DNA from: Cetorhinus maximus
Taxonomy: Eukaryota
Assembly (NCBI RefSeq): GCF_964194155.1
Contig: NC_135901.1
Span: 2,232,001-2,296,000, forward strand
Reading direction: 5' to 3'
Length of the DNA: 64,000 nucleotides
Shown here: piece by piece, positions 3,701 to 53,222 of the stretch
Layout: each line of letters starts with the position of its first letter
How positions within the stretch are numbered: position 1 is the first letter of the stretch
Notes under the pieces: generated by a model
Databases searched by the model: none
The model's input: the letters and a program-made list of their open reading frames with translations, nothing else
What the model was told of the DNA's origin: nothing
Made by a program: the position numbers and the translations under genes

Positions 3701-4985
3701 AACACTTTCTTTTCTCCCCCTTTCCATTACTTTTCTCATTCTGGGTTTAAATTGTTGACTTGCAGGAACTGAAGGGAAAGGAAGCGAATCCAGTGAGGGT
3801 GCAGACTCTGGAAAGGTTGGCCTACTCTCTCTCTCTCTTAAAGACATTGACATCGTTTGCTCACTCATCTTGGCACATTTGTTTGTCTGGCTAATGTTCA
3901 CATTTAAAGGGGTCGTTTTCCCAGGGAATGGCTGATATTTAAGGGGACAGTAAATTAATATAGGACAGGTTTAAGTGAAGTGATGTTATGTGGTTCATAT
4001 TAGACATATTATTTATGGTTTTCCAATTAAGTACATTTATTATTATTTCTAGTCTTGTAATATAGTACTGTAGCTATGTTATATATTTTCAGACAGTCGA
4101 TATGACACAGAAGGAGTCCATTTGGCAACTAGAGTCCATACCAACTCTGCAGAGGAATCCAGTCAGATCCATTCCTCCTTTATATCCTCCTCACCCTGCA
4201 AATTTATTTCCTTCAAGTGCCCATCCAATTTTGAAATAATTGATCATCTCTGCTGCCACCATCCCCATAGGCTATAGGCTGCCTAAATAAAGTTCTTCCT
4301 CACATCCTGCGTGTATCTCTAATCAAGTAATACATTACTGTATATTACATGCATCTTTAGTCCAAAAAATATATTATATGTATTAGAATCAGTGAGCATG
4401 GACCCGTTGATCAGCATGAATTGTCACCTTCAGAAGAATTGGGGCGGTGTATATTAGGTACAGCAGAGTGAGAATGGAGGGAGAGTGTGTGGGATGGAGA
4501 TTTACAGCTTTTGGGGAATGAGAGAGGAAAGAATGTTTCATAGAAACTAGAATTGTTTGTTTTGAATTTCTAACCAGTACTGACAGTGATGATTTTTGTA
4601 AACTCCTTTCACAGGATATCTGGAGGTGAGGATTTGCAGACTGAAATCTCAAAACAAACATCACACCATGATCTGACAGAGTCACTCGATTCATTGGGAT
4701 GTGGATGTCATTGGCATTTGAATCTAGAAGGAGAAATGTTTATCTGTTCTGTTTGTGGAGAAGATTTCAAACATCAGTGTGACCGGGAAAGCACCAAAAC
4801 ACACACACACACACACCTGAGTGGGAGTGTTACAGTGAACTGACTGTGGAAAGAGCTTTAACCAGTTACACAGCCTGAAAAAACATCACAGCATTCAAAC
4901 TGGGGAGAAACCGTAAATGTGCTCTGTTTGTAGATGAGTCTTCAACTGATTGTTGAACCTGGAAAGACAGAAGGACACCCACACC

Positions 4986-5576
4986 ATGGAGAAAAGATGG
5001 AAGTGTGGGGGCTGTGGGAAGGGATTCCGTTGCCCGTCTGATCTGGAAACTCATCGACGCAGTCACACTGGGGAGAGGCCATTCACCTGCTTTGTGTGTG
5101 GGGAAGGATTCAGCAAGTCATCCACTCTGCAGTCACACCAGCGAGTTCACACTGGGGAGAGGCCATTCACCTGCTCCGAGTGTGGGAAGGGATTCACTCA
5201 GTCAACCAACCTGCTGACACACAAGCGAGTTCACACCAGGGAGAGGCCGTTCACCTGCTCTGAGTGTGGGAAAGGATTCACTCAGTCATCCAACCTGCTA
5301 ACTCACCAGCGAGTTCACACTGGGGAGAGGTCATTCATTTGCTCCAAGTGTGGGAAGGGATTCACCCAGTCATCCAACCTACTGACACATCAGCGAGTTC
5401 ATACAGGGGAGAGGCCGTTCACCTGCTGTGTGTGTGGGAAGGGATTTAATCGGTTATCCAGCCTGCAGGAACACCAGCGCGTTCACACTGGGGAGAGGCC
5501 ATTCATCTGCCCTGTATGTGGGAAGGCATTCACTTGGTCCTCCCTTCTATTGAGACACCAGCGACTGCACCAGTGA
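4986..5576 (+). CDS. C2H2 zinc-finger protein, 7 fingers, 196 aa
   Basis: [10 protein letters not shown]..., TGERPF linkers, uninterrupted frame, ATG in accATGg context. Confidence 0.88.
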
Positions 5577-10273: not shown

Positions 10274-10620
10274 GAACCATAGAACACTACAGCACAGAAA
10301 ACAGGCCATTCGGCCCTTCTAGTCTGTGCCGAAATATTATTCCGTTAGTCCCATTGACCTGCATCTAGTCCATAACCCTCCAGACCTCTCCCATCCATGT
10401 ATCTATCTAATTTATTCTTAAAACTTAAGAGTGAGCCCGCATTTACCACGTCAGATGGTAGCTCGTTCCACACTCTCACCACTCTCTGAGTGAAGAAGTT
10501 CCCTCTAATGTTCCCCCTAAACCTTTCCCCTTTCACCCTAAAGCCATGTCCTCTCATGTTTATTTCTCCTAATCTAAGTGGAAAGAGCCTACTCGCATTT
10601 ACTCTGTCTATACCCCTCAC
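10274..10620 (-). mobile_element. Young CR1 LINE 3' fragment nested in an older CR1
   Basis: RGIDRV..LFP..RGNFFTQRVVRVWNELP CR1 ORF2 C-terminus. Absent at the paralogous site near 58450. Confidence 0.85.
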
Positions 10621-11349: not shown

Positions 11350-12500
11350 GTGAACTCGCTGGTGTCTCAGCAAGGTTGGATGACTGAGTGAATACCTTTC
11401 CACACTTGGAGCAGGTGAACAGTCTCTCCATGGTGTGAACTCGGTGGTATGCCAGTACAGAGGATGAAACACCAAATCTCCTCCCACACGCAAGGCAGGT
11501 GAATGGCCTTTCCCCGGTGTGAACTTGCTGGTGTCTCAGCAGGTGAGATGACTGAGTGAAGCCCATCCCACACACAGGTGAACAACATCTCCCCAGTGTG
11601 AACCTGTTGGTGTGTCAGCAGATGCTATGCCTGAATGAATCCCTTTCTACACAGGGAGCAGGTGAACAGCCTCACCCCAGTGTGAACTCGTTGGTGTGTC
11701 AGCAGGGTGGATGAATTACTGAATCCGTTCCCGCACTCAGGGCAGGTGAACGGTCTCCCTCCTGTGTGAACTCGCAGGCGTGTCAGCAGTTGGGACGAAT
11801 TACTGAACCCTTTCCCACACATAGAGCAGGTGAATGGCCTCTCCCCAGTGTCAATATAATTCCAGTGCAGGCAGGGAAGGCAATCCCTTCCAACAGTCTT
11901 TTCCATGGTTTGTCCAAGGTGCGGTTGTCCTTGTGTCTCTCGAGGGTTGATGATCGGTTGAAGCCTCATCCACATACAGAACACGTGTACAGTTTCTCCC
12001 TGCTGTGAATGGTGTGATGTGTTTTCAGGCTATGTAACTGGTTAAAGGTCTTTCCACAGTCAGTGCACGGGAACACTCTCACTCGGGTATGTAGTCACAC
12101 TGATGTTTAAAACCTTCTGAAGCAGACAGACCAGAAAACAGTTTTCCTCCTCGATTCAAAACTGATGAAATTCAAAGGCCAATGATATTCAGATCCTGAT
12201 GAATCGAGTGATTCTGTCAGATGTTGATGTGACCTTTCATTTGAGATTTCTGTCTGCAATCTGTCCTGCAAAATGAGTTCACAAAAGTCATCATTGTCAG
12301 CGGAGGATAGAAATTCAGAACAGACAATTTTAGATTCCGTGGAAAACTTTTTCCTCTCTTATTCCCCAAAAGCTCTAAATCTCCACCCCACACACTCTCC
12401 ATTCTCTGCTGGACTTGTTTTAGACCCTCCCAATTCTCCTGAAGGTGGTGATTCATGCTGATAGATCCATGTCGACTGCTTCTTGTATTGGACCTTAAAA
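11350..12500 (-). pseudogene. ZNF pseudogene (about 7 fingers, deletions and frameshifts, start ATG changed to TTG)
   Basis: Finger ORFs split into 11625-11984 and 11306-11575; first finger partly deleted; accTTGgac at the usual start position. Confidence 0.85.
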
Positions 12501-12639
12501 TTTTCATACAATAAAAAACAGGTTCCACAAAATCACCAGCATTTCCCCCCTCAGCATATTTGGCACTAATTCCAGTTACAGATTCCCACAACTCTCTGTA
12601 CTTCCCAGGGAGTGTGAAGAAAGTGATTTACTCACAGAT

Positions 12640-13190
12640 GTTGGTCAGAGGAGGAAGTTTTAGTGTTTGCGAAGCTCAAAAGAAATGTTGTTCTGTTTAA
12701 AATCAAACTGCATGACTCGGAAGAAAATAAAGCGAAGACACTTCACAAAATCCCCTCCCCTCCCCCCCCCCCCACTCCTGCAGCTGGCAGCCCAGCGCGC
12801 AGGCGCAGAAAGCACTGCTGACCCGAGCTGGCCGGAGCAGGCGCAGTGCAGCTGCCGCCAGCGGTCGCGCTCGATCTCTTTTTGGATCAGGCAGCCGCCG
12901 TAGACAGTGTGGGGTGGGAAGGGCAGTTCGCTGAGCGGCTTCTCGGCCTGTCCGGAGCCGTCAGCCGGTTACCTGGAAACCTTGGCTCGAGGAGGGGGAG
13001 GGGGGGACAATGGGTGGGGGCAAGGCTCCCGTGTCCGCGCGCCTGGCGTGCAAGATTGGAACCCGAGGACGTCAACGCGGAGCAGAGTGATTCCCATTGG
13101 CTGGTTCAGGTAGGGTTCGATTGTGGACGTAACAATGCGGAAGTTGAACAATGAGCTTCAGGCTAAAACTTCTGTGCAACATCTGTCAGC
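12640..13190. promoter_or_regulatory. Bidirectional CpG-island promoter, type-2 copy 1
   Basis: gcgcaggcgcag (NRF1-like), gcggaagt (ETS-like) and attgg boxes, lying between divergent ZNF genes. Paralogs at about 21190-21730 and 49665-50295. Confidence 0.75.
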
Positions 13191-13255: not shown

Positions 13256-14711
13256 GAAACCAAGAACTGTGATTGTACTCAAAAGAGTTGCAATCTGTGA
13301 CTGTTGATAACTCGAAAAGAGTATCTGTGAGGAAATCAATGTATTTATTGTATGTCTATTTATTTTCTAATTCTGGTCTTAAATTGTTGACTTGCAGGAA
13401 CTAAAAGGAAAAGAGTTAGTCCAGGGAGGGTGCAGTTTAGAAAGGTTGGCGCAATCTCTACTCTCAAAGACATTGACATCCTTTGCTCTCTCATCATGAC
13501 ACATTTATTTGTCTGGCTAAAAGAATGGTCTCTTTCCTGATGTACAGAATTAAAGGGATGGTTTCCCCAGAAGGCTGACATTTAAGAGGACATAGTAAGG
13601 TAGGACATGTCTTGTGTATAGATAGCGTACGTCTAGTGTCATATGTTATATTCTAGATATTGTTGGTTCTCTGATAAAGTACATTATTTATTTCCAATTT
13701 TGTAATGTAGCACTGTATATGTCCAGCTATTGAGTCATTATAGCATAGAAGGAGTCCATTTAAGGGACAGTAAATTAACATCAGGCAGAGATATGTCTAG
13801 TGCTGTTATATGATACATATTATTTATGATTCTTTAATTAGGTACATTCAGTTAATTTCTAGTCTTGTATTACAGAAATGTAGTTACGTTATATATTTCC
13901 AGTCACAGAGACATTACGGTACAAAAGGGTGTCCATTCGGCAACTCAAGTCCATGCCGACTCTCTGCAAAGCAATCCAATCAGTCCCGTTTCCCCTCTTT
14001 ATCCCCGTTCCTCTGCAATTTTATTTCCTTCAAATCAATTTCATGCATCCATCCAATTTCATTTTGAAATTATTGATCATCTTTTCTCCCAATACCCTCT
14101 GCGGCAGTGAGTTGCTGTATGTCTGTGTGTTCGGGACAGGAAGCAGTGAGAATGGATCTGCTGATCAGCATGAATTGGCACCTTCAGAAGAATTGGGAGG
14201 ATGTTTATTAGGTCCAACAGAGTGACAATGGAGGCAGGGTGTGTGGGACAGAGATTTACAACTTTGGGGGGAATGAGAGAAGAAAGAATGTTCCATTGGT
14301 TCTGAATTTCTATCCTGTACTGACTGATGACTTTTGTAAACTTCTTTTACAGGATATTTGAAGGGGTGGAATTACGGATGGGAAACTCAAATGAAGCATC
14401 ACGTTAAGATCTGATACAGCAACTTGATTCACCAAAATCTGAATATCATCAGTCTTTGATTCCATAAGAGAAAGGTTTGTCTGTTCTGTCTGCATCCATA
14501 ATTTTTAAAAATTAGTATGACTGGAAAAGCACTGAGAGACACACACACACCCAAGTGAGAGTGTTCCAGTAAACTGACTGTGGAAAGAGCCTTAGCCAGT
14601 TCCACAGCCTGTTCGCACCATTTACAATGGGAAGAGACCATACACATGTTTTGTGTGTGGACCAGGCTTCAGCTGACAGTCAAGCTAGAGAGAAACAAGG
14701 ACACTTGCATC

Positions 14712-15302
14712 ATGGAGAAACCGTGGAAATGTGAGGACTGTGTGAAGGCATTCAGATCTCCATCTTTGCTGGAGATTCATCGACGCACACACACTGGGGA
14801 GAGGCCGTTCACTTGCTCAGAGTGTGGGAAGGGATTCAGCGATTCATCCAACCTGCTGGCACACCAGCGGGTTCACACTGGGGAGAGGCCGTTCACCTGC
14901 TGTGTGTGTGGGAATGGATTCAGTCAACTATCCAACCTGTTGCGACATCAGCGAGTTCACACTGGGGAGAGGCCATTCACCTGCTCCCAGTGTAGGAAGG
15001 GATTCACTCGGTTATCCAGCCTGCAGACGCACCAGCGAGTTCACACTGGGGAGAGGCCATTCACCTGCTCCATCTGTGGGCAGGGATTCAGTGATTCATC
15101 CACCCTGCGGCAGCACCAACAACTGCACAGTGGGGAGAGGCCGCTCACCTGCTCTGAATGTGGGATGGGATTCACTCAGTTATCCAGGCTGCTCAGACAC
15201 CAGCCAGTTCATACTGGGGAGAGACCATTCACCTGCTCCGTGTGTGGGAAGGGGTTCACTCGGTTATCCAGCATGCTCAGACACCAGCGAGTTCACAAGT
15301 GA
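14712..15302 (+). CDS. C2H2 zinc-finger protein, 7 fingers, 196 aa
   Basis: MEKPWKCEDC... intact frame to TGA. Confidence 0.88.
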   Translation: MEKPWKCEDCVKAFRSPSLLEIHRRTHTGERPFTCSECGKGFSDSSNLLAHQRVHTGERPFTCCVCGNGFSQLSNLLRHQRVHTGERPFTCSQCRKGFTRLSSLQTHQRVHTGERPFTCSICGQGFSDSSTLRQHQQLHSGERPLTCSECGMGFTQLSRLLRHQPVHTGERPFTCSVCGKGFTRLSSMLRHQRVHK

Positions 15303-15339
15303 TCACAGTCATTGGATTCTGTTGTTATTCACATCCAGT

Positions 15340-19846: not shown

Positions 19847-21189
19847 GGTGTGGGGGTCCTTGTGTCTCTCCAAGTTCTACAATCAGTTGAAGCCTCATCT
19901 ACACACACAACACGTGTCTGGTTTCTCCCTGCTGTGAATGTTTTTCAGCTCTGTAACTGGTTAAAGCTCCTTTCATAGTCAGTGCAGTGGCACACATTCA
20001 CGAGGGTGTGTGCATCTCAGTGCTTTTCAAGTTAGATTAATGTTTAAAACCTTTTGAAACAGGCAGACATTTCTCTTTCTAAATTCATAGGCTGATGTCA
20101 CTCACGTCCCAATGCGTTGGGTAGCTCTGTCAAATCTTGACGTGATGTTTGGTTTGATATTTCTGTCTGTAAATCCTCCTCTTCTAATATCCTGTAAAAG
20201 GAGTTTACAAAAGTGATCACTGTCAGTACAGGATAGAAATTCAGAATAGACAATTCAAATTTCTATGGAACATTCTTTCCTCCCTCAATCCCCAAAAGCT
20301 GTAAACCTCAGTCCCACACTCTCCCTCTATCCTCACTCTGCTGTACCTAAAACACACCCTCCCAATTCTCCTGAAGGTTCTGATTCATGCTGATCGACAG
20401 ATCCATGCTCACTGCTTCCTGTACTGGACACAGAGACCTGAAAATCTTCATGCAGGCTGTCAGCCTAATATAAATATGTTTATGTTACTAGACTAAAAAT
20501 TAGTATAATGTACAGTCCCGTATCACTTGGTTAGAGGAAAAGCTCCATTTATGCAGTGAGTGGTCATGACCTGGTGAAAGTGAAGACAATCAATGATTCA
20601 AAATGAAATTGGATGTGCAGTTGAAAAAATGAACTTGCCGGGGAACCAAGATATAAAGGGGGAATGGGGCTGACTGGATTGCTATACAGGGAGTCGGCAT
20701 GGACTTGAGTTGTCAAATAGAATCCTTCTGTGCCACAATGACTCTGTGACTGGAAATATATAACGTAGCTACAGTACTATATTAGAAGATTAAAAATAAC
20801 AAAATGTGTTATAGAGCCATAAATATTATACCTAATATGTAACATATAACAACACTAGACATATCTTTGTTGTTATGATTCCCATGGAGACCGATAACGT
20901 TAAAATAAACACATTCCCAGACAAACCCAATGGAATAAACCGAAGGACAAGGTTTCACTTTTTTAATTTTTCCTGTAACAATCAAACTAAAATCAACACA
21001 AATGAAACATGCATTAACAGACAAGCAGGATTTGAACAGACAGGATAAATTTGACCTGAAACAGTTTATACAATAAAAGCAGGTTCCACAAAATCACCAG
21101 CATTTCCCCCCTCAGCATATTTGGCACTAATTCCAGTTACAGAGTCCCACAACTCTCTGTACTTCCCAGGGGAGGGAAAGAAAGTGTTT

Positions 21190-21730
21190 TACTCACAGAT
21201 GTTAGACAGAGGAGGAAGTTTTAGTGTCTGTGCGAAGTTAATAACAAACGCTATGCTGTTTAAAATCAAACTCAGAAATAAATGAAGGGAAGACATTTTG
21301 TAAACACCTCCCCCCCCCCCCAGCGCGCAGGCGCAGAAAGCGCTGCTGACCCGAGCTGTCCGGAGCAGGCGCAGTGCGGCTGCCGCCAGCGGTCACTCTC
21401 GATCTATTTTTGGACCCAGCCAACTGCCGTAGACAGTGGGGGGGGGAGGGGGAATTCACCGAGCGGCTTCTCGCTCTGGCCGGGGCCGACAGCTGGTTAC
21501 CCAGAAACCTTGGCTCGAGGAGGTGCAGGGGGAGCGGGAACAATGGGTGGGGGGCGGGACTCCCGTGTCAGCGCGCCTGGCCTGCAGACTACAACCCGAG
21601 GACGTCACCGCGGGGCAGAGTGATTCCCATTGGCTGATTCAGGCAAGGTTCCATGGTGGACATCACAGTGCGGAAGTTGGACAATGAGCTTCAGACTAAA
21701 ACGTCCTCCTCTGGGTAACATCTGTGGGGA
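21190..21730. promoter_or_regulatory. Bidirectional CpG-island promoter, type-2 copy 2
   Basis: Paralog of 12640-13190, between divergent ZNF copies. Confidence 0.75.
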
Positions 21731-22330: not shown

Positions 22331-22926
22331 ATTTCTTATAATCTCTCCAGGAAAGGAAGCAGTGAGCATGGATCTGTTCAGGAGAATTGCGACGGTGAAT
22401 TTTTGGCACAGCAGAATGAGAATGGAGCGATTGTGTGTGGGATAGAGATTTACAGGTTTTAGGGAACAAGAGATGAAAGAATGTGCCGTAGAAACGAGAA
22501 TTGCCTGTTCTGAATTTCCCACCTTTACTGACAGTGATGACTTTTCTAAACTCCTTTTACAGGATATTAGAAGGGGAGGATTCGTAGTCAGAAATCTCAA
22601 ACCAAACATCATGTCAAGATCTGACGGAGTCACTCAATTCATCGGGACCTGAATATCATCAGCCTTTGAATCTAATGGAGAAATGTTTGTCTGTTCTGAT
22701 TGCTTCATAAGGTTTTAAAGTTCATTGTGACTGGAAAAGCATCAAGATGCACACGCCCACGTGAGAGTGTTCTCGTGCACTGACTGTGGAAACAATATTA
22801 AGCATTTACACAGCTTGACAAAAACATCAGACCATTCACAGCATGGAGTGACTGTACACGAGTTCTGTTTGTGGATGAGTCCTCAACTGATCGTCGAACC
22901 TGGAGAGTCACAAGGACACCCACACC

Positions 22927-23517
22927 ATGGAGAAACGGTGGAAATGTGGGGACTGTGGGAAGGGATTCCAGTCCCCTTCTGCACTCGAAATTCATCGACG
23001 CATTCACACCGGGGAGAGGCCATTCACGTGCTTTCTGTGTGGGAAGGGATTCGCTCGGTCATCCAACCTGCTGACACACCAGCGAGTTCACACAGGGGAG
23101 AGGACATTCACTTGCTCTGTGTGTGGGAAGGGATTCACTCGGTCATCCAACCTGCTGACACACCAGCGAGTTCACACCGGGGAGAGGCCATTCAGCTGCT
23201 CTGAGTGTGGGAAGGGATTCGCTCATTTTTCCGCCCTGCAGACACACCAGCGAATCCACACTGGGGAGAGGCCATTCACCTGCTCTGTGTGTGGGAAAGG
23301 ATTCACTCAGTTATCCAGCCTGCTGAGACACCAGCGAGTTCACACTGAGGAGAGACCATTCACCTGCTCTGCTTGTGGGAAGGAGTTCAGTAATTCATAC
23401 AACTTGTTGACACACCAGCGAGTTCACACTGGGGAGAGGCCGTTCACGTGTTCTGACTGTGGGAAAGGATTCACTCAGTTAGCCAACCTGTTGAGACACC
23501 AGCGAGTTCACAAGTGA
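22927..23517 (+). CDS. C2H2 zinc-finger protein, 7 fingers, 196 aa
   Basis: [10 protein letters not shown]... intact frame. Confidence 0.9.
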
Positions 23518-30559: not shown

Positions 30560-32550
30560 ACATGGATGACCAGAGATGTTCAGGTTATGATGAGAAGGAA
30601 AAGAGAGGCTTTTAGCAGGTACAAGGGAAGCAAACCAGCTGAGGCATTAGTGGAGTACAGACAGTGCAGGGTGGAGCTTAAGAAAGCAATTAGGAGAGCA
30701 AAGAGGGGATATGAGAAACCTCTGGCTGGTAAAAGTAGAGAAAATCCCAAGATATTCTATAAGTATATCAATGGGAAGAGGATAACCAGGGGAAGAGTAG
30801 GGACAAAGGGGGCAATCTATGGGTGGAGCCAGAGGACATCGCTCGAGTGTTGAATGAATACTTCACATCCGGCTTCACCCAAGAGAGTGAGGAGGAAGGT
30901 TATCGAACTCGGTGAAAGAGACTGCAAGGTTCTTAAGCAAATTGATATAGGGAGTGACAAGGTATTGGAGGTGTTGGCAGGCTTAAAAGTGAACAAATCT
31001 TCAGGTCCAGATGAGTTGTGTCCCAGACTACTGAGGGAGGCAAGGGAGGAGATCGAAGGGGCTCTGACCCAAATTTTTAATTCCTGTCTGGCCAAGGGGG
31101 AGGTGCCAGAGGACTGGAGAAGAGCTAATGTGGTTCCACTATTTAAGAAGTGTTGTAGATGTAAGCCAGGGAACTACAGGCCAGTGAGTCTCACGTCAGT
31201 GGTAGGGAAACTCTTGGAGAAATTTCTGAAGCAGAGTATCTATCTCCACTTGGAAAGGCAAGGTTTGATCAGGGATAGTCAGCATGGCTTTGTCAGAGGG
31301 AGGTCATGCCTAATAAATTTGAATGAATTTTTTGAGGAGGTGACCAGGTGTGTAGATGAGGGTAGTGTAGTTGATGTAGTTTATATGGATTTCAGCAAAG
31401 CCTTTGACAAGGTCCCATATGGGAGACTTATAAAGAAGGCAAATGCACATGGGATACATGGTAATTTGAAAAGGTTGATTCAAAATTGGCTTAGTTGTAG
31501 GAGGCAGAGGGTGATGACAGGATGTTTAGCGACTGGAAGCCAGTGTCCAGTGGCGTACCACAGGGATCTGTGCTCGGTCCCCTATTATTTGTCATTTATA
31601 TAAACGACATAGATGACTATGCGGGGGGTAGGTTTAGTAAGTTTGCGGATGACACAAAGATTGGCCGGGTGGTTACCAGTGAGGTTGAGTGTCTTGGGCT
31701 ACAGGAAGATATAAACGGGATGGTCAAATGGGCAGATAAGTGGCAGATGGAATTTAACCCTGAAAAGTGTGAGGTGATACACTTTGGAAGGAGTAATTTG
31801 ACAAGGAAGTATTCAATGAATGGCACGGCACTAGGAAGTTCTGAGGAACAAAGGGACCTTGGCATGTGTCCATAGATCTCTGAAGGTGGAGGGGCAAGTT
31901 AGTGGGGTGGTGAAAAAGGCATTTGGGACATTTGCCTTTATCAATTGAGGCATAGATTACAAAAGTAAGGAGGTCATGTTGGAGTTGTATAGAACCTTGG
32001 TGAGGCCACAGCTGGAGTACTGTGTGCAGTTCTGGTCGCCACATAATAGGAAGGATGAGATTGCACTGGAGGGGGTGCAGAGGAGATTCACCAGGATGTT
32101 GCCTGGGATGAAATATTCACGTTATGAAGAGAGGTTGGATAGACTTGGGTTGTTTTCATTGGAGCAGAGAAGACTGAGGGGCGACCTGATCGAGGTGTAC
32201 AAGATTATGAGGGGCACGGACAGGGTGGATAGGTAGCAGCTGTTCCCCTTAGTTGAAGGGTCAGTCACAAGGGGGCATAAGTTCAAGGTGAGGGGCAGGA
32301 GGTTTAGGGAGGATGTGAGGAAAACCTTTTTACCCAGAGGGTGGTGACGGTCTGGAATGCGCTGCCTGGGAGGGTGGTGGAGGCGGGTTGCCTCACATCC
32401 TTTAAAAAGTACCTGGATGAGCACTTGGCACGTTAAAACATTCAAGGCAAGGCTGGTAAATGGGATTAGGTAGGTAGGTCAGGTGTTTCTCATGTGTTGG
32501 TGCAGACATGATGGGCCGAAGGGCCTCTTCTGCACTGTGATTCTGTGATA
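30560..32550 (+). mobile_element. 5'-truncated CR1 LINE ORF2 (RT)
   Basis: [48 protein letters not shown], and a tail ending ..gattctgtgat. Confidence 0.92.
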
Positions 32551-34787: not shown

Positions 34788-35825
34788 TCACGTGTGAATT
34801 CGCTGGTGTGTCAGCAGGTTAGAAGATCGATTAAATCTCTTCCCACACACGGAGCAGGTGAAGGGCCTCTCCCCAGTGTGAACTCGCTGGTGAGTCAGCA
34901 GGTTGGATGAATGAGTAAATCCCTTCCCACACACGGGACAGGTGAAGGGTCTCTCCCCAGTGTGAACTCGCTGGTGTCTCAGCAGGTTGGATGATCGATT
35001 AAATCCCTTCCCACACACGGGACAGGTGAATGGCCTCTCCCCGGTGTGAACTCGCTGGTGTGTGAGCAAGTGGGATGGTCGTGTGAATCCCTTTCCACAT
35101 TCAGAGCAGGTGAAGGGCCTCTCCCCAGTGTGAACTAGCTGGTGTGTCAGCAGGTTGGATGACTGGGTGAATCCCTTCCCACATTTGGAGCAGGAGAACG
35201 GCCTTTCCCCAGTGTGAACTCGTTCATGTACAGTAAGTTCAGATGATCGTCTGAACCCAGTCGCACAGTGAGAGCACCTGAACGGTCTCTCATCAGTGTG
35301 AATACGTTGATGATATTGCAGATCCCCAGAACCTTTGAAGCACTTTCCACAGTCTGGACATTTAAAAGGTCTCTCGTCAGTGTGAACCCGTTGATGTGTC
35401 AGAAGGTGGGGCGATGTCCTGAACCTCTTCCCACACTGTGAGCAGCTGAACGGTGCATACCCGGTGTGAATGCGCTGGTGCTCCCTCAGTCCATGTGGGT
35501 TTTTAAAGCTCTTTTCACAGTCAGGGCATTTAAACTCTCTCTTTTCAGCGTGGACTTGCTGGTGTTTCAGCAGGTGGGATGAGAGAGTGAATCCTTTTCC
35601 ACACACGGAGCAGGTGAACGGCCTCTCCCCAGTGTGAAGTCGCTGGTGTCTCTGAAGGCAGACTAACTGAATGAATCCCTTCCCACACACGGAGCAGATG
35701 AATGGCCTCTCCCCGGTGTGACTGCGTCGATGAGTTTCCAGATCAGACGGGGATCTGAATACCTTCCCACAGTCCCCACATTTCCACGGTTTCTCCCTGG
35801 TGTGAACGGTGCTTTTTGCTTCCAT
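34788..35825 (-). CDS. C2H2 zinc-finger protein, 12 fingers (about 345 aa from MEAKS; upstream exon frame also open)
   Basis: Intact ORF 34788-36041; likely acceptor tttgtag near 35930. Confidence 0.88.
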
Positions 35826-36324
35826 GTTCAAAGGATGATAATATTCAGGTCCTGATGAATCAAGTGACTCTGGCTGATTTTGATGTGATAGTGGTTTGAC
35901 TTTCCAAACTGAAAATCCTTCTAATACTCTACAAAATGAATTTAAAACATAAACAAGGAACTGTGAAACAGAACCGACAAAAACACAAGGACAGGCTGTG
36001 ACATTGAGGTGAATGAATCTGGTAATTTGTGGGACCAGCACGAGGAAAATGTGACCATGGAAGCTACCAGATTGTCATAAAAACCCAACTGGTTCACTAA
36101 TGTCCTTAAGGGAAGGGAACCTGCCTCCCAGTCTGGACCTACACAAGATTCTGGCCTCTATGGGAGAAGAGAGAGTGAGAGGTGGAGGAGGGGAAAAGGA
36201 GATGGATTTCATAGATCTGCAATTCAACCAGAATTTGAAAATTCCAAACCCATGACCCCCACCACCTGGAAAGACATGAGCAACTGGTGCATGGGGAAAA
36301 CCATCAGCTTCAAGACGCACAGCA

Positions 36325-36935: not shown

Positions 36936-38559
36936 ACCAACAGGGAGTTGTCAGGATCGGGAACTCTTGACCTCTGGAACCTGATTCTACAGGGAATTTT
37001 AAAAGGAAGTTGACAGGGATTTGAGAATGAGGAATTTACTGATTACAAACAGAATGCATGTGAGTGGGTCTAAATATGACTGCTCTTTCAAAGAGACAGC
37101 AGAAGCACAAAGGGTTGAATGGCCTCTTTCTGTGCTGTAAGTTTCTATGATTCTAGGGGATGGCTATTTAGTCCCTCGTGTCTGTTCCACCATGAAATGA
37201 GATCATGGCTGATCTGTGATCTAACTCTATACACTTGCCTTTGCTCCACATCCATTAATACCTTTGGTTAACAAAGATTGTTCAATGTCATATTTAACAT
37301 TAACATTGATCTTGCATCAACTGTTGTTTGTGGAACAGAGTTCCTCACTTCTACCTCCCTTTGTGTGTAGAGGTGTTTGCTAACTTCACTTCTGAAAGGT
37401 CTAGCTCTCATGTTTACATTATGCCCACTATTGCGTTGATATCCTCTTTAACCAGCAATGCAACTCCACCGCCTTTTCCTTTTTGTCTGTCCTTCCTAAA
37501 TACTGAATACCCCTGGATGTTCAGTTCTCATCCCTGGTTGATGCAAGATCAATGTTAATGTTAAATCTGACATTGAACAATCTTTGTTAACCAAAGGTAT
37601 TAATGACATTAAACAGTCCCAGATTCCCCAACTGGTGGAAATTGTTTCTCTCTATCTATCCATTCAGTTCCAATTAATATTTTGACAACTTTGATCAAAT
37701 CACCCCTTAATCTTCTAAATTCCAGTGAATACAACGCAACTTTGTGTCATCTCGCCTCACAATTTAACACTTGGAGTCCAGGTATCGTTCAGGTAAATCT
37801 GTGCTGCACTCCCTCCAGGGAAAATGTATCCTTCCTGCCCAGAACTGAACACCGTTCTCCAGATGTCGTCTGACCAGGGCTTTGTGTATCCAGATGCTTT
37901 TCCAGTCACAGTGATACCTGAAATTAATTTATTAGGAGAGATGACTGAAACTCGGATTGTGTTTCCAGGAATTTATCCAAGATAGAGAGAAATTATTTCT
38001 GTTAACTGGGGAGTTGTGGACTAGGGGCATAGTCTAAAAATTGTAGCCAGGTCTTTCAGATTGAAATGGGGTAACAATTGTTGACACAAAAACAAAAGTT
38101 TGGAATTCTCTCCCACAAATGACAATTCCCTCACCAATATGACCACCCATTTACACCCCCACCCCCACCTTCCCCTCCCAAGATGGTGATAGACAGTTGC
38201 CTGCATAAACCAGGCCTCTTACCAGGGTTTCCAGGCCCACAGCCACCATGTTTTTTTTATTCTATGATGGGATGTGGGCATTGCCCATCCCAATAGACCT
38301 GGAACTGAGTGGCTTGCTGGACGGTTTCAGAGTGAACCACTTCACTGTGGGTCTGGGGTCACATGTAGGTTGGCAGATTTCCTTCCCTGAAGGAGCGCAG
38401 GTGAACCAGATGAGGTTTTAAAACAACCCATGATAGTTTTATGGTCACAATTTCCGAGACGAGGTTTATATTCCAGATTTATTCACTGAATTGAATCCAT
38501 ATCCTCAGAACAGGGTCTCTGGGTTTCTAGCCCAGTGACATTACCACTAGGCCACCGTC

Positions 38560-41490: not shown

Positions 41491-42415
41491 AATGTTGTGC
41501 ATTTCTATCCTGGACTGACAGGGATGGATTTTGGAAACTCCTTTTACAGGGGTTTAGAAGAGGAGGATTTACACACAGCAAACTCAAACCGAGAGAAATG
41601 TGTGTCTCTTCTCAATTTCTATCCTGAGCCAACTGATGAATTTTGTAAACCAAAAAAAAAATTACAGGTGTTGGGAAAGTTTGGGTTGGGGCATTTTTTC
41701 TTTAGAAAAAGGGAGAGGGAGGAACTGATAGAGGGCTTTACAATGATCAATGGGTTGGACGGGGTAGATATGGAGAGAATGTTTCCACTTGAAATGTCTT
41801 CACTCAGAGAGTGGTGAGAATATGGAACTCACAGGAAACCATTGAGGGAGAAAAATTGTGATAGTTTCAACAGGAGACTAGATGAGTACATGGAAGAAAA
41901 GGGATTAGAAAGATAAGCTGAAAGGCTGAGATGATTTGCATGAAATGGGGGGAGAAGCATAAAACTAGCAGAACAGTTGGACAGAATGGCCTGTTTGTCT
42001 GTTGCATATTTTGAGTATTTCAATTTAAACTTCATTTACAGGGTATTCGGAGGGTTGGATTTGCAGATGGGAAATTCAAACCAAACATCACATCAAGATC
42101 TGACAGAGTCACTTGATTCATTAGGATCCGAATATCATTGGCCTTTGAATGTGCAAGGAGAAATGTTTGGCTGTTCTATCTGTGGGAAAATGTTTCAAAC
42201 ATCAGTGTGACTGGAAAAGCACGAAGACAGACACACACACCCCGAGTGAGAGTTTTCCAGTGAACTGACTGTGGAAAGAGCTTTAACCAGTTACACAGCC
42301 TGAAAAAACATCATACTGTTCACAGCGGGAAGGGACTGTACACGTGTTGTGTGTGGGTGTGGGGCTGGGCTTCAACTGGTCGTCCAACCTGGAGAGACAC
42401 AAGGACACCCGCACT

Positions 42416-43564
42416 ATGGGGAAACCATGGAAATGTGGGGACTGTGGGAAGGGTTTCAATTCCCCATCTGAGGTGGAAACTCATCGACGCAGTCACACTG
42501 GGGAGAGACCGTTCACTTGCTCCGTGTGTGGGAAGGGATTCACTCAGTCATCCAGTCTCTACACACACCAGCATGTTCATACTGGCAAGAGGCCATTCAC
42601 CTGCCTTGAATGTGGAAAGAGATTTAATGCTTTGTCAAACCTCCGGACTCACCATCGTGCTCACTCTGATGAGAGACCGTTTAAATGTTCTGACTGTGAG
42701 AAGAGCTTTAAAAGCAGAAAGGATCTACTGACACACCAACGCACTCACACTGGGGAGAGGCCATTCACCTGCAATGTGTGTGGGAAGGGATTCACTCAGT
42801 CATCCCACCTCCTGACACACCAACTTGTGCACACTGATAAGAGACCTTTTAAATGTTCTGACTGTGAGAAGAGCTTTAAAAGTAAAAAGGATTTACTGAA
42901 CCATGAACACATTCACACTGGGGAGAGGCCATTCACCTGCTCCGTGTGTGGGAAGAGATTCACTTCTTCATCCCACCTTCTGACACACCAATTTGTTCAC
43001 ACTGAGCAGAGACCTTTTAATTGTCCTGACTGTGAGAAAAAATTTAAAAGCAAAAAGGATCTTCTGAAACACCAACACACTCACACTGGGGAGAGGCCAT
43101 TCATCTGCTCTATCTGTGGGAAGGGATTCACCCGGTTAGCCCACCTGCTGAGACACCATCGAGTTCACACTGGGGAGAGGCCATTCACCTGCAATAAATG
43201 TGGGCAGGAATTCATTGATTCATCTGACCTTCTGATACACCAGCGAGTTCACACTGGGGAGAGACCATATACTTGCCTTGAGTGTGGCAAAAGATTCACT
43301 CAGTCATCTCATCTCACTACACATCAACTTGTTCACACTGATCAGAGACCTTTTAAATGTTCTGACTGTGAGAAGAGATTTAAAAGTAAACAGAATCTGC
43401 TGACACACCAGCGAGTTCATACTGGGGAGAGGCCGTTCACCTGCTCCGTGTGTGGGAAGAGATTCGTTCAGTCAAACAACCTGCTGAGACACCAGCAAGT
43501 TCATATGCGACAGCGGGGGTTGGATTCTGATGTAATTGCTACTTTTATTCACATGCAGGACTGA
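42416..43564 (+). CDS. C2H2 zinc-finger protein, 13 fingers, 382 aa
   Basis: [10 protein letters not shown]... intact frame with a short C-terminal extension. Confidence 0.88.
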   Translation: MGKPWKCGDCGKGFNSPSEVETHRRSHTGERPFTCSVCGKGFTQSSSLYTHQHVHTGKRPFTCLECGKRFNALSNLRTHHRAHSDERPFKCSDCEKSFKSRKDLLTHQRTHTGERPFTCNVCGKGFTQSSHLLTHQLVHTDKRPFKCSDCEKSFKSKKDLLNHEHIHTGERPFTCSVCGKRFTSSSHLLTHQFVHTEQRPFNCPDCEKKFKSKKDLLKHQHTHTGERPFICSICGKGFTRLAHLLRHHRVHTGERPFTCNKCGQEFIDSSDLLIHQRVHTGERPYTCLECGKRFTQSSHLTTHQLVHTDQRPFKCSDCEKRFKSKQNLLTHQRVHTGERPFTCSVCGKRFVQSNNLLRHQQVHMRQRGLDSDVIATFIHMQD

Positions 43565-43589
43565 ATCATGTCTGGACGCCTGTTTTCAG

Positions 43590-46500: not shown

Positions 46501-48895
46501 ATGAGGAAAACCCTGTTTATGCAGTGAATGGTCAGAATCTGGACCTGCACTGACTGAGAGAGTGGTGGAGGAAGGTTCAATCATGCCTTTCAAAACAGAA
46601 TTGGATAATTATCTGAACAGAAAAAATGTGCAGGGCCGGGGAGTGGGACTGGCTGAGTAGCTCTTTCGGAAAGCTGGCATGGGCATGGACATGATGGGCT
46701 GAATGACCTCCTTCTATGCTGTAACCATTCTATGATTCTAATGAAGGCTGTGGGGAAAGGGCAGGGGAGTGGGACTCATTGGCAGCTCCTTCAAAGGTGG
46801 TCCCAGCCCTACAATGCAGCTCCATATTGAAAGGAGGCAGTCTGATGTCCAACTCTCCAAGAATAAAGAAAGATCTCAACTCTTAGCAGGATTAGGCAAT
46901 TCAGTCTCTCGAGCCTGCCCCACCATTCAATACGATCATAATTGATCTCATTTCGGCCTGAACTCCAATTTCCCGCCCTCCCCCCCTAACCTTTCAACCC
47001 TTTACTAATTAAAAATCTGTCTATCTCCTCCTTAAATTTATTCAGTGTCCCGGCATCCCCTGCACTCTGAGGTAGTGAATTCCACAGATTCACGACCCTT
47101 TGAGAAAAGTAATTCCTCCTCATCTCTGATTTAAATCTACCACCCTTTAGCCTAAAACTATGGCCTCTTGTTCTACAATGCCCCACAAGGGGAAACATCT
47201 GCTCATGTCTACTTTGTCTATCCCCTTTAGCATCTTATATACCCCAATTAGATCTCCTCTCATCCTTCTACACTCTAGCGAGTATAGGCCTAAACTGCTC
47301 AATCTCTCCTCATAAGACAAGCCCCGCATCTCTGGAATCAATCTAGTGAACCTCCTCTGACCTGCCTCCAATGCAACAACATCCTTCCGCAAGTAAGGGG
47401 ACCAAAATTGTGCACAATACTCCAGGTGCGGTCTCACCAATGCCTTGTACAGTTGCAACAATACTTCCCTATTTTTATACTCTATTCCTTTAGCAATAAA
47501 TGCCAAAATTCCATTTGTCTTCCTTATTACCTGCTGTACCTGCATACTAGCTTTCAACGATTCATGCACGAGGACACCCAGATCCCTCTGCACTGAAGCA
47601 TTCTGAAGTTTCTCTCCACTTAAATAATAAGTCGACTTTTTATTCTTCTGACCAAAGTGGATAACCTCACACTTATCCACATTCAACTCCATCTGCCAAA
47701 TTTTGGCCCATTCACCTAACCTGTCCATATCCATTTGTAAATTTTTTATTTCTTCATTGCAACTTACTTTCCCACCTATTTTTGGTGTCATCTGCAAAGT
47801 TAGCTATTGTACCTTCTATCCCTGAATCCAAGTCATTAATATAGATTGTAAATAGTTGGGGCCCAAGGACTGAACCCTGTGGCACCCTACTAGTTACAGC
47901 TTGCCATCCAAGGAGCCCTTCAATTCTCTGTGAATGTCTTTCAAATGCTGACAGATTCCTTCCTTCTTTTGAAATTTCATTTCCTTATGCCTGGGATGCA
48001 GACAGTGCTGGACACAGAGGGAGCAGCAAACCTGGTTCAGAGTGGACACGCTGGGTATATCCCTCCTTAAGTAAGGAGACCAAAACTGTACACAGTACTC
48101 TAGGTGTGGTTTCACCAATGCCCAGTACAGCTGTAGCAAAACTTCCCTACTTTTATACTCCAACCCTCTTGCAATAAATGCCAACATTCCAGTTACCTTC
48201 CTAATTTCTTGCTGTACCTGCATGCTAACTTTTTGAGATTTATGTGCCAGGACCCCAAGGTCCCTCTGTACTACAGCATTCTGCAGTCTCTCTCTACTTA
48301 AATAATTTCTGATTTTCTATTCTTCTTGTCAAAGTGAAAACCCTCACATTTTCCCAAATAATGCACCATCTGCAAGTGTTTTCCCATTCACTTAATCTAG
48401 CTCTTTGTTTCCTCACAATTTGATTTCCTACCCATTGTCAGCAAATGTGGCTGCAATACACTCGGCCCATTCAACCACGTCATTAGTATAGGTTGTAAAT
48501 GGTTGAGGTGACAGCACTGATCCCATAAGACCATAAGACATAGGAGTAGAAATTAGGCCATTCGGCCCATCGAGTCTGTTCCGCCATTCAATCATGGCTG
48601 TTAAGTTTCTCAACCCCATTCTCCTGCCTTCACCCCATAACCTTTGATCCCCTTACCAACCAAGAACCTATCTATCTTGGTCTTAAATACACTCAATGAC
48701 CTGGCCTCCACAGCCTTCTGTGGCAATGAATTCCATAGATTCACCACTCTCTGGCTAAAGAAGTTTCTCCTCATCTCTGTTCTAAAAGGTCTTCCCTTTA
48801 CTCTGAGGCTGTGCCCTCGTGTCCTAGTCTCTCCTACTAATGGAAACATCTTCCCCACGTCCACTCTATCCAGGCCTTTCAGTATTCTGTAAGTT
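43590..48895. mobile_element. Stack of nested CR1/LINE fragments on both strands
   Basis: Repeated LEYCVQFW, QRDLGV and NFFSQRVVNLWNSLP motifs (for example 46162-46482 +, 46885-47897 -, 48525-48895 -). Confidence 0.8.
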
Positions 48896-49664
48896 TCTGT
48901 ACAGTTCTGTTGAAGGGTCATGAGGACTCAAAACGTCAACTGTACTCTTCTCTGCCGATGCTGCCAGACCTGCTGAGTTTTTCCAGGTATTTATGTTTCT
49001 GTTTTTGTTTTGAATTTCCAGCATCCACAGTTTTTTGTTTTTATCTCTATGTATTTAATATCTTGTTAAATTAATAAACATTTATGTTAGTTTAGATAAA
49101 AAAAAAACCTTTTGAGACTGTGGTTTTATTTCTGAATTCAGAGCTGCATCTCAAAACATACCAATTGAAAATATAGGTTATGACATTTGTTCAAGTTTCT
49201 ATCTGGGATTTAAACAACTCAGCCTTTACCAACTGCTGTGTCATAACATCGCTGCAGTACTACATTACACGACTAGAAATAATAATAAATGTACTTTATT
49301 ACAGAAGCATAAATAATATATCTAATTTGTACAATATTACACCACTAGACATATCTATGTTGTTACAATCCCCTTAAAAGAAACAAATTCCCAGACAATC
49401 CTCAACGGAATAAATCGAAGGACAAGGTTAACTTTTAAAACTTATTCTGTAACAATCAAACTAAAATCAACAAAAATGAAGCATGCATTAAAAGACAAAT
49501 ATTATTTGAATAGACAGGATAAATTTGACTTTAAACAGTTTATACAATAAAAAACAGGCTCCACAAAATCACCAGCATTTCCCCCCTCAGCATATTTGGC
49601 ACTAATTCCAGTTACATAGTTCCACAACTCTCTGTACTTCCCAGGGGAGGGAAAGAAAGTGTTT

Positions 49665-50295
49665 TATTCACAGATGTTGGACAGAGGAGGAAGGTTAAGT
49701 GTCTGTATGAAGTTAATAACAAACGCTGTGCTGTTTAAAACCAAACTCTGGAGAAGATGAGGGGAAGATATATAGTAAACTCCCCTCTCCCACTCCCTCA
49801 GCTGGCAGCCCAGCGCGCAGGCGCAGAAAGCGCTGCTGACCGTGTTGTCCGGAGCAGGCGCAGTGCGGCTGCCACGAGCAGCCGCTCTCAGTAGCTTTTT
49901 GTTTTTATCTTTCCACCGATGCTGCCAGACCTGCTGAGTTTTTCCAGGTAATTCTGTTTCTGTTCTCGATCTCCTTTTGGGCCGCCGTAGACAGCAGCCA
50001 CGGCCGTGGGGGTTCGCTCCGCGGCTTCTCGCTCTGGCCGGAGCCGCCAGCCGGTTGCCTGGAAACCTTGGCTCGAGAAGGTGCAGGAGGAAGGGGAACA
50101 ATGGGTGGGGGTGGGGCTCTCGTGTCCGCGCGCCTGGCCTGCCCTGCCGCCTGGAACCCCAGCACGTCACCGCGGAGCAGAGTGATTACAAATTGGCTGA
50201 TTCAGGCAGGGTTCCATTGTGGACATCACAATGCGGAAGTTGGACAATGAGCTTCAGACTGAAACTTCCTCCTCTGGGCAACATCTGTGAGGAAA
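49665..50295. promoter_or_regulatory. Bidirectional CpG-island promoter, type-2 copy 3 (left gene missing)
   Basis: Paralog of the 12.8 kb and 21.3 kb promoters, with a ~75-bp Penelope-derived insert at about 49889-49963. Confidence 0.75.
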
Positions 50296-50489
50296 TCAGT
50301 GTTTCTCCCTTTCTATTTCTAATCTAATTCTGGTCTTAAATTGTTGACTTGCAGGAACTGAAGGAAATGAAGTTAATCCCAGGAGGGTGCAGACTCTGGA
50401 AAGGTTGCCCCAGTTCTCTCAGTGAAAGGGGTGGTTTGCCCAGTAGTTGGCTGGTATTTAATGAGACAGTACAGTAATATAGACATTGA

Positions 50490-50915
50490 GTATTGCTGTA
50501 AAAAGAGAGATTCTGTCGAAGCTTTTCATTTGCACGCATCAAAATAGATGTGAGAATGTCAAATTTCAAAGGGAACAATAATTCATATTGTAAAACAGTG
50601 AGCTGATTGTTTTGCAAGTGTACTCAGGTCAAGTTGTTGCTTTGGGGTATGCACCAGGGAACAATCATGGCTAGCTTTTATTTAAATTCAGAAAATCCGA
50701 ATCAAATCCAGTTGGTTGAGAGATGTCACTGGGGGAAATGACAAGGAATAGTTGTCCATGTAGCTTTTGTTCAATTGAAAAGGCACAATGCCTAGACAAA
50801 TTTTCCCCGCTGAGGTCCAGGCCCAATAAAAGATTATCAGTTGGGCTCACAATGTGGCTCACTTACACTTGCTAGAAGCTCCATTTATCCCTATTCCAGG
50901 TCCGGTCCACTGCAC
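50490..50915 (-). mobile_element. Penelope-like 3' fragment in a ZNF intron
   Basis: Reverse-complement similarity to 8880-9260. Confidence 0.6.
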
Positions 50916-52127
50916 ATAAAGAAATTTTTTTGGAAGTCTTACTATAGTTGCACAGGGCATTGTTGAGGCCACACGTTGAGTATTCTGCACAGTTTTGGAT
51001 TCCTTCCTTAAGGAGGGATATACTGGCTTGGAAGCCATTTGTAGAAGGTTCACTAGGCTGATTCCTGGGATGAAAGATTGTCATCTGAGAAATGCTGAGC
51101 AGGTTGAGCCTTAACTCATTGGAGTTTAGAAGAATGAGAGGTGATCTTTTTGAAACAAATGGCATTCTGAGGAAGCTGGACAGAGTAGGTGCTGGGAGAA
51201 TGTTCCCTCTCATGGGGAAATCTAGAACAAGGGGACACAGTTTAAAAAAGGGGTCTCCTATTTAAGATGGAGATGGGGAGGAATTTATTCTCTCAGAGGA
51301 GCGTTAGCCTTTGGAATTCTCTTCCACAGAGAGCAGTGGAGGCCGGGTCATTGAATATATTCAAGGCCGAGTTAGACAGATTTTTGATCAACAAGAGAGT
51401 CAATGATTATGGTGGACAGGCAGGAAAGTGCAGTTAAGGCCACATCAGATCAAACATGATCTTATTGAATGGCGGAGCAGGCTTGATGGTATGAATGGCC
51501 TACTGCTGTTCCCATTTCTTATAATCTCCGTTTCCAGGACAGGAAGCGGTGAACATGAATCTGTCGATCAGCTTGAATCGGCACCTTTAGGAAAATTGGG
51601 AGGGTGTATAGTTGGTACAGCAGAATGAGGATGTAGGGAAAGTGTGCGGGATGGAGATTCAGAGATTTTGGGGAATGAAAGAGGAAAGAATGTTCCATCA
51701 AAATTACAATTGTTTGTTCTGAATTTCTCCTCTGTACTGACAGCAATGACTTTTGTAAACTCCTTTTACAGGACATTAGAGGGGGAGGATTTGCAAATTG
51801 AAATCTCAAACTAAACGTCACGTCAACAGTCACTCGGTTCATCACGATGTGAGTATCATCGGCCTTTGAATCTAGAAGGAGAACTGTTTGTCTGTTTTGT
51901 CTGCTTCAAAAGGTTTTTAACATCAGTGTGACTGGAAAAGCACCGAGACACACAGGCCCGAGTGAGAGTGTTCCAGTGCATTGACTGTGGAGAAAGCTTT
52001 AACAGGTTACACAGCTTGACAAAAACATGAGACCATTAACAGCAGGGAGAGACTGTACACGTGTTCTGTTTGTAGAAGTGTTTTCAACTGATTGTTGAAA
52101 CTGGAGAGACACAAGGACACCCACACA

Positions 52128-53222
52128 ATGGAGAAACCGTGGAAGTGTAGGGACTGTGGGAAGGGATTCCAGAACCCATCTGCACTGGAAAATCATCGAC
52201 GCAGTCACACCAGGGAGAGACCATTCACCTGCCCTGTTTGTGGGAAGGGATTCACTCTCTCAGGCAACCTGCAGATACACCAGCGAATTCACACCGGGAA
52301 GAGACCATTCACCTGCTCTGAGTGTGGGAAGGGATTCACTCAGTCATCTTCCCTGCAGAGACACCAGCGAGTTCATACTGGGCAGAGGCCGTTCACCTGC
52401 TCTGATTGTGGGAAGGCATTTACTCAGTTATCCAGCCTGCTGACACACCAGCGACTTCACACTGGGGAGCGGCCATTCACCTGCTCCGAGTGTGGGAAGG
52501 AATTCACTCAGTCATCCGCCCTGTGGATACACCAGCGAGTTCACACTGGGCAGAGGCCGTTCACCTGCTCTGACTGTGGGAAGGCATTTATTCAGTTATC
52601 CAGCCTGCTGACACACCAGCGAGTTCACACTGGGGAGAGGCCATTCACCTGCTCTGACTGTGGGAAAGGATTCACTCAGTCATCCAGCCTACTGACACAC
52701 CAGCGACTTCATACCGGGGAGAGACCTTTCACTTGCTCTGAGTGTGGGAAGGGATTCAATCAGTCAACTAACTTGCTGACCCACTGGCGAGTTCACACAG
52801 GGGAGAGGCCGTTCACCTGCTCCAAGTGTAGGAAGGGATTCACTCATTTATCCACCCTGCGGAGACACCAGCGAGTTCACACTGGGGAGAGGCCGTTCAC
52901 CTGCTCCAAGTGTGGGAAGGGATTCACTCAGTCAACCGCCCTGCAGGCACATCAGCGAGTTCACACCGGGGAGAGACCATTCACCTGCTCTGAGTGTGGG
53001 AAGGGATTCAGTGATTCATCCCACCTGCTGATGCACCAGCGAATTCACACTGGGGAGAGGCCGTTCACCTGCTGTAACTGCGCGAAGAGATTCAGACTTT
53101 CATCCACCCTGCTGAAGCACCAGCAAGTGCATGCTGAGGAGAGGCCATTCACCTGCTCCGCTTGTGGGAAGGGATTCACTCAGTCATCCAACTTGATGAG
53201 ACACCAGCGAGTTCACAGATGA
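52128..53222 (+). CDS. C2H2 zinc-finger protein, 13 fingers, 364 aa
   Basis: [10 protein letters not shown]... intact frame. Confidence 0.9.

Follow-up and report, generated by a model that had tools for sequence, protein, structure and literature searches.

Clustered C2H2 zinc-finger genes of the Krüppel type in mammals have lost N-terminal parts by degeneration and have then been duplicated (PMC2443715), and the KRAB-ZNF and FiNZ-ZNF families combine an upstream exon, spliced to a single exon encoding the finger array, with large lineage-specific expansion (PMC10547256). The 64,000 nucleotides of the 4.0 Gb Cetorhinus maximus genome analysed here (C24:2232001-2296000, called the window below) hold a tandem C2H2 zinc-finger gene cluster on both strands, interspersed with retroelement-like pieces, in which open reading frames (ORFs) encoding only fingers are preceded by a leader of dead ones. 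We consider it probable that this leader is an old, near-neutral fossil 5' untranslated region (UTR) of a large finger-only subfamily, which broke once before the two main shark branches split, was copied with the duplications and has been retained behind its splice acceptor.

With the mammalian families the shark family shares tandem TGEKP-type arrays in clusters and a decayed N-terminal part that was multiplied; it differs in what was lost (part of the last exon, comprising a spacer with three fingers, rather than a KRAB or SCAN exon), in its new linker-derived ATG, and in that this state is shared across shark orders and occurs at at least 530 places (PMC2443715). The KRAB-ZNF and FiNZ-ZNF architecture and expansion are likewise shared, except that the shark family has no detected effector domain, its exon 1 carries no coding signal, and the predicted protein is fingers only. 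N-terminal loss with duplication is thus on record for mammalian C2H2 genes; the terms 'shark', 'cartilaginous' and 'chondrichth' are absent from the main text of PMC10547256, and no published description of the shark family or its leader was found in titles and abstracts, subscription journals and supplements lying outside that coverage.

Leaders were collected from the window, 1.0 Mb of C24 (18-32 Mb) and 30 search loci, giving 122 full-length copies (partial and deleted leaders excluded), reduced to 84 non-redundant copies at 93% identity with a median pairwise distance of 0.21; the counts below refer to these 84 unless stated otherwise. A second sample, 0.4 Mb from elsewhere in the genome, yielded 12 leaders, reduced to 8 (4 pairs). 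Selection was measured in 42 independent leader pairs and, separately, against the majority sequence of the 84. Divided by their finger arrays, 36 copies are intact and 41 broken (7/84 unclassed), and about half of the family may be pseudogenes.

The majority sequence can be read in a single frame that starts at the acceptor, takes in a 40-codon spacer and three finger-like repeats and continues to MEKPWKC, three stops being its only interruption. The first-pass annotation, made from the sequence of the window, had described about three decayed fingers upstream of MEKPWKC, and this description holds: the zf-C2H2 profile of Pfam still accepts leader finger 2 at 11969-12094(-) (26.4 bits, cut-off 25.2), and finger 1 gives a weak match (E 0.023). 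Downstream, the ORF begins at the first live finger, and stops and frameshifts cut off the upstream frame from the fingers. Pfam recognises 13 zf-C2H2 stretches in 52128-53219, tandem C-x2-C-x12-H-x3-H units with TGEKP-type linkers. KRAB, SCAN and BTB are not among the best 25 of 48 Pfam families for this ORF (52128..53222), and the Pfam families listed for the ORF, the spacer and predicted proteins P0002 and P0003 include no N-terminal effector family, FiNZ not having been scanned for. A 21-mer around the first shared stop has 8 window matches at up to 3 mismatches (0.00 in 100 shuffles), and the window holds 7 full leaders, 1 with an internal deletion, 1 decayed copy and 1 fragment (Table 1). 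The spacer of copy 4 stays open for 55 codons until its stop 1, and the ORF of copy 6, from the ATG at 19846(-), is broken after 80 amino acids (aa).

Two stops mark the whole family. Stop 1 is TGA in 70 leaders, TAA in 5 and CGA in 1 (a stop in 75/84); stop 2 is TGA in 66, TAA in 6, AGA in 6 and CGA in 1 (a stop in 72/84). The positions given earlier for stop 1 (4780, 14518, 22728, 42208 and 51929 on the plus strand, 2800 and 60087 on the minus strand) are correct to within 2 bases. Those for stop 2 stand at 4947, 14673 (14674), 22887 (22888), 52089 and 2655(-) (near 2657), while the one placed at 19876(-) is actually at 19885; the CGA given at 11954(-) was found at 11956, and the TGG at 42377 is as described. 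An exact 23-mer around stop 1 has 530 matches in the genome, on C24 and also C22 and C32, some of them possibly near-identical segmental or unplaced duplicates. The codon is TGA in 514/530 and sense in 16 (8 CGA, 7 AGA, 1 GGA), and none of these 16 opens into the main ORF, further stops or frameshifts occurring in all. A third in-frame stop site, four codons upstream of stop 1, reads TAA in 53 and CAA in 21 of the 84; it marks part of the family and is likely younger than the shared two.

Relatives of the leader are present in proteins predicted from named sharks. P0001 and P0002 (Pristiophorus japonicus) and P0003 (Heterodontus francisci) terminate exactly at FQTSV, that is at stop 1, and P0005 (Carcharodon carcharias) at CGQGFN, that is at stop 2, the stop codons being read from the ends of these models and not from their DNA. 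P0132 and P0160 carry Trp at the stop-1 site, yet their frame is lost or they terminate shortly afterwards. P0001 and P0002 belong to the Squalomorphii and P0003 to the Galeomorphii, the two main shark branches, and on these sequences stop 1 likely predates their split, which lies about 250 million years back or more. Together with the fixed-stop codon spectra, models ending at the stops on both branches bear out the earlier proposal that inactivation preceded the expansion. Chondrichthyan substitution rates are slow (PMC8455134), which makes a still-recognisable fossil of such age plausible. The P0001 model also fuses histone H2A to the leader spacer before it ends at stop 1; the fusion reflects a prediction artefact or else a chimeric transcript.

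The start codon sits at the linker Gly position, where ACC-ATG-G replaces T-G-E, in the strong Kozak context that had been described. The main ATG is present in 35/36 intact and 32/41 broken genes (p=0.016), and this linker-derived ATG is likely the start of translation, the predicted protein beginning at MEKPWKC. AGG, found at the start site in 3/84 copies and in window copies 35798(-) and 2618(-), is likely an intermediate on the way to the linker ATG.

That the leader lies within the messenger RNA (mRNA), as the first-pass annotation assumed, also appears likely. Its position behind the splice acceptor of the last exon, whose A and G are kept in 100% and 98% of the 84 copies, makes it likely that the leader remains in the transcript. 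At locus L033, five rows among the best 15 of 196, all from presumed-RNA run X1, are contigs in which the exon-1 donor (2342) is joined directly to the acceptor region (3208-3234) and the candidate exon between them is left out; the same joint is absent from run X12 among the rows listed. Summed depth at the acceptor rises 24-, 13- and 14-fold in presumed-RNA runs X1, X3 and X6, against 2.3-fold in X12. In run X3, one contig (record 20) spans finger 1 through the main ATG, and predicted protein P0136 joins an exon-1 peptide to the spacer. A comparison of contigs over the whole gene was swamped by repeats, with no splice joint among the best 15 of 342 rows.

Most of the measurements point to a leader that changes without regard to coding. 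Against the majority sequence, omega is 0.91 in the spacer, 0.95, 1.04 and 1.02 in fingers 1-3 and 1.00 in the intron, against 0.50 for the opening codons of the ORF, with 4 nonsense changes there vs 29 expected. The 42 pairs give 0.97 for the leader (p=0.58) and 0.60 for the coding start (p=0.019). In the second sample, with only 4 pairs, leader omega is 0.97 and 1.04. Among 316 live fingers from the 36 intact genes omega is about 0.44 at the counted positions, and structural residues are depleted of changes. Of 160 distinct indels in the leaders, 39 have a length divisible by 3, with net frames of 24/33/27, and the substitutions follow no codon pattern. Nor are the shared features conspicuous: the two TGAs show 13 and 10 differences over 42 pairs (background median 15), and out-of-frame TGAs of the leader are kept in 62-72/84 copies, as often as the shared stops. 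Intact genes keep them no better than broken ones, whether stop 1 (32/36 vs 37/41, p=1), stop 2 (33/36 vs 34/41, p=0.32) or the consensus upstream ATG (24/36 vs 32/41, p=0.31). Decay at the neutral intron rate, which the first-pass annotation had named, together with absent ribosome occupancy, as a finding that would count against a retained leader, is largely what is seen: counted per copy, divergence stands at 0.111 for the leader and 0.133 for the 63 intron bases that precede the acceptor, not a significant difference (Wilcoxon p=0.69). Most likely the leader mutates at about the neutral rate, and function-driven retention is unsupported.

Several points weigh against this account, either against neutrality or against the placing of the start and of the leader in the mRNA. 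Pooled pair differences per site are lower in the leader than in the intron (0.128 vs 0.171), with a minimum of 0.089-0.099 around finger 2; a weak constraint on the leader at the RNA level is possible. The pair test gives finger 3 an omega of 0.79 (p=0.043, uncorrected; 1.02 in the majority-sequence test), and the spacer has 24 nonsense changes vs 39 expected in pairs (69 vs 74 in the majority-sequence test). A stricter division of intact and broken genes leaves the main ATG in 26/27 vs 22/26 (p=0.19), so that support for it is only moderate, and in the pair test the main ATG is not kept above background (13 differences). The A at -3 is kept in 82/84, a level reached by 8/115 leader A positions, and is kept equally in broken and intact genes, so the good start context may simply derive from the linker. 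Finally, runs X1, X3 and X6 are taken as RNA by guess, derive from other organisms and consist of contigs, whose depth is a poor measure, and the splice joints come from one of them.

Among other explanations, the shared TGAs might have arisen repeatedly, by independent CpG decay after the expansion. Both sites fit the CGA arginine codons of a finger, and CGA does occur there, in 1/84 at each site and in 8/530 genome-wide at stop 1. The true CpG codons of the family, however, split CGA/TGA/CAA 44/21/13, 41/15/15 and 30/24/12, so that between one third and one half of copies retain CGA and CAA appears, while CAA is absent among the codons listed at both stop sites and AGA is about as frequent as CGA at stop 1 (7 vs 8), as expected for later changes from TGA. 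Spectra so unlike the split of true CpG codons make inheritance of the stops likely; they rule out recurrent decay, to which we allow hardly any probability. We give even less to the idea that the TGAs are recoded, by readthrough or as selenocysteine, yielding a longer protein with three extra fingers. In its favour, the majority sequence keeps one frame and has CTG directly after stop 1, as had been stated for the copies in general, although the copy at 4780 reads TGA-CCG. Against this, 81/84 copies are frameshifted, all 84 have at least two in-frame stops, omega is about 1, and TAA and further stops accumulate. The earlier view that readthrough is unlikely therefore stands, with the amendment that a frameshift is not present in every copy: the other 3 have 4, 4 and 10 in-frame stops. 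For a SECIS or other recoding structure, an Rfam scan of one 7 kb stretch (49000-56000) returned only a chance tmRNA match (E 0.099). A search for an annotated protein reading from leader finger 2 into the array was swamped by generic fingers, the best 120 of 138 matches being at most 57% identical, a weak result. For the sampled copies of this genome, frame and codon evidence excludes readthrough and selenocysteine.

A different question is whether the untranslated leader does something. Regulatory leaders of the ATF4/GCN4 type place short upstream frames ahead of the main ORF, and the finger leader has such upstream ORFs (uORFs) too, except that it keeps none of their features (start, stop, length or peptide) above background. 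It might instead be retained as a translational brake, its length and its load of upstream ATGs, rather than any one uORF, limiting the output of collision-prone finger proteins. At least one upstream ATG is present in all 84 leaders (median 4, range 1-9); an out-of-frame uORF overlaps the start in 16/36 intact genes, a class that is reportedly slightly deleterious overall (PMC3486843), ribosomes stall on tandem C2H2 fingers in zebrafish (PMC11620358), and the pooled counts make the leader slightly less diverged than the intron. We nevertheless think a brake unlikely. Overlapping uORFs are no less common in broken genes (22/41, not significant), upstream ATGs number 3.9 per intact and 4.0 per broken leader (p=0.93), and one-step gains of upstream ATGs match expectation (236 seen vs 246; in intact genes 104 vs 106), so new upstream ATGs are neither purged nor favoured, even in intact genes. 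Large leader deletions also occur (in the window 60252-59995; in predicted proteins P0008 and P0133), and the dead fingers are missing from the sister subfamily described below. The first-pass claim that the leader was kept as a uORF device is thus unsupported, there being no codon pattern, no better keeping of stops or upstream ATG in intact genes and no departure from neutrality in ATG gain. Neutral gain in intact genes would also follow if most productive mRNAs lacked the whole leader, through an internal acceptor or start site that made upstream ATGs invisible to selection, and some contig joints do fall inside the leader. This is less probable still: the upstream acceptor is strongly kept and presumed-RNA depth rises there, contigs such as X3 record 20 extend from finger 1 past the ATG, and the internal joints listed have no GT..AG ends, several coinciding with genomic deletions or fitting the sister subfamily. 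It remains puzzling that genes with an intact array carry, and tolerate, a median of 4 upstream ATGs. It is doubtful, though conceivable, that the family has made a shared low-output leader from its own dead fingers, or reaches its start by a route that ignores upstream ATGs; if so, purifying selection would act on the coding fingers while upstream ATGs would be gained and lost freely over the roughly 360 bases of leader.

The neutral fossil leader that we prefer would have arisen in a few steps. An ancestral last exon, to judge from the majority frame, would have carried spacer and fingers as one coding frame. In a founder, two Arg codons, likely CGA, would have become TGA through CpG decay, giving the stops now fixed. 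The linker Gly codon would likely have passed through AGG to ATG within the linker-supplied ACC-nnn-G, in which ATG and context are now observed. The unit has multiplied to at least 530 places, the broken front likely being copied with each duplication. To get past the upstream ATGs to the main one, ribosomes are predicted to use leaky scanning and re-initiation, and output is predicted to be low and untuned by selection. A redundant family may pay little for low output, because overlapping uORFs are only slightly deleterious and are tolerated at small population size (PMC3486843), and because the fingers themselves stall ribosomes (PMC11620358).

A sister subfamily shares the acceptor and spacer, the spacer being likewise untranslated in several copies (a stop precedes the Met), but starts at the Met that ends the spacer, with MEGKSTVHSGEKP (35825(-) in the window; P0004, P0139, P0141), and has no fossil fingers 1 and 2. 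Its first finger corresponds to fossil finger 3 and has an intact H-T-G-E-K-P linker where the leader family has T-M-E-K-P. In 1.06 Mb, 173 acceptor-spacer matches comprise 83 of leader type, 12 of sister type, 56 other and 22 partial, by a crude motif test in which 'other' mixes both types with decayed copies. Several sister genes (L093-L125 region) share a stop of their own, NLS*PEY, just before the start Met, and front-end loss seems for this reason to have occurred more than once. Extra acceptor-plus-spacer fragments lie upstream of two leaders of the main family, at 41493-41590(+) and 3104-2978(-).

Upstream, a module aligned in 59/84 copies comprises two promoter types, an exon-1 donor (GT in 55/59) and a 50-base candidate exon. 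The two promoter types are likely two faces of one bidirectional promoter, which contains what we take to be CCAAT- and ETS-like motifs. Exon-1 donor motifs face opposite ways in pairs at 49660-50290, with others at 12660(-), 21221(-)/21699(+) and 62335(-); judged from this arrangement, such pairs are likely the bidirectional promoters of head-to-head gene pairs. The 50-base candidate was rejected as a constant exon 2, its summed depth not exceeding that of intron 1 and the listed joints skipping it. In the join of exon 1 and candidate exon 2 the synonymous share is 0.21 and 0.28 where 0.25 is expected, so there is no sign of coding. In 12/17 type-A copies an exon-1 ATG 56 bases before the donor is in frame with the spacer (ORFs of 21 to 75 aa); a conserved upstream peptide from this ATG was rejected on the varying ORF lengths and the spacer omega of about 1. 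A 13-aa frame, with its ATG 40 bases before the donor and a stop created by the splice junction, occurs in 14/17 type-A copies, and an 8-aa frame, with its ATG 51 bases before the donor, in 23/26 type-B copies. If the family has any shared uORF, it would be these exon-1 frames, which lie in a homogenised module and may precede the transcription start site. The end of exon 1, intron 1, the candidate exon and the first 100 bases of the next intron differ between paralogues by 0.03-0.09, while the leaders of the same genes differ by 0.08-0.14. This low divergence includes intron interiors, with CpGs kept:decayed at 97:12 and 85:16, and points to gene conversion or to a promoter cassette that spread recently.

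Table 1. Leader copies, associated genes and other features (window coordinates unless a locus is named).
Feature	Coordinates	Strand	Remarks
Fossil leader copy 1	4615..4985	+	acceptor AG 4613-4614, spacer, three dead fingers, upstream ATG 4736, stop 1 TGA 4780, stop 2 TGA 4947
Start of last exon (leader copy 1)	4615	+	directly after acceptor AG
C2H2 finger-only ORF	4986..5576	+	196 aa, 7 fingers; start is the linker-derived ATG
Promoter/exon-1 module of copy 1, type B	3560..3815	+	CT at the usual GT donor; 50-base candidate exon 3766-3815
Fossil leader copy 2	14353..14711	+	stop 1 TGA 14518, stop 2 TGA 14674; then ORF 14712-15302
Fossil leader copy 3	22563..22926	+	stop 1 TGA 22728, stop 2 TGA 22888; then ORF 22927-23517
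Exon-1 donor motif of copy 3	near 21699-21728	+	
Fossil leader copy 4	42042..42415	+	stop 1 TGA 42208, TGG at stop-2 site (42377); then ORF 42416-43564
Fossil leader copy 5	51772..52127	+	stop 1 TGA 51929, stop 2 TGA 52089
C2H2 finger-only ORF	52128..53222	+	364 aa, 13 fingers; follows copy 5
Fossil leader copy 6	19847..20191	-	TAA at stop 1 (20034), stop 2 TGA 19885
Fossil leader copy 7, pseudogene	11918..12265	-	stop 1 TGA 12097, CGA at stop-2 site (11956), TTG at start site
Leader with internal deletion	59995..60252	-	most of fingers 2 and 3 deleted; stop 1 TGA 60089..60087; ATG 59994
Decayed leader	2600..2900	-	stop 1 TGA 2801..2799, stop 2 TGA near 2657, AGG at start site
Leader fragment	37894-37914	-	absent from the first-pass annotation
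Sister-subfamily gene	34788..35980	-	same acceptor and spacer, no fossil fingers; ORF MEAKST... 35825-34788
Likely bidirectional GC-rich promoter	49660..50410	.	donor motif on + at 50262-50291 (serves copy 5); second on - from 49696
Homogenised module	50180-50510	+	
Homogenised module	3560-3900	+	
Homogenised module	L033:2240-2560		
Decayed retroelement-like ORF	3-2478	-	presumably reverse transcriptase/integrase
Decayed retroelement-like ORF	30854-31875	+	as above
Decayed retroelement-like ORF	47147-48223	-	as above

On present evidence no new recoding or regulatory mechanism is involved. The finding bears on the gene model of a very large and poorly annotated shark family, in which MEKPWKC is the likely start of the protein. 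It casts doubt on predictions that terminate at leader stops or fuse the leader to other exons, the histone-leader model P0001 being one, and probably places a single founder event before the Squalomorphii/Galeomorphii split. Hundreds of parallel copies of an exonic, unselected sequence beside selected fingers amount to a natural experiment on the uORF load that a vertebrate gene tolerates.

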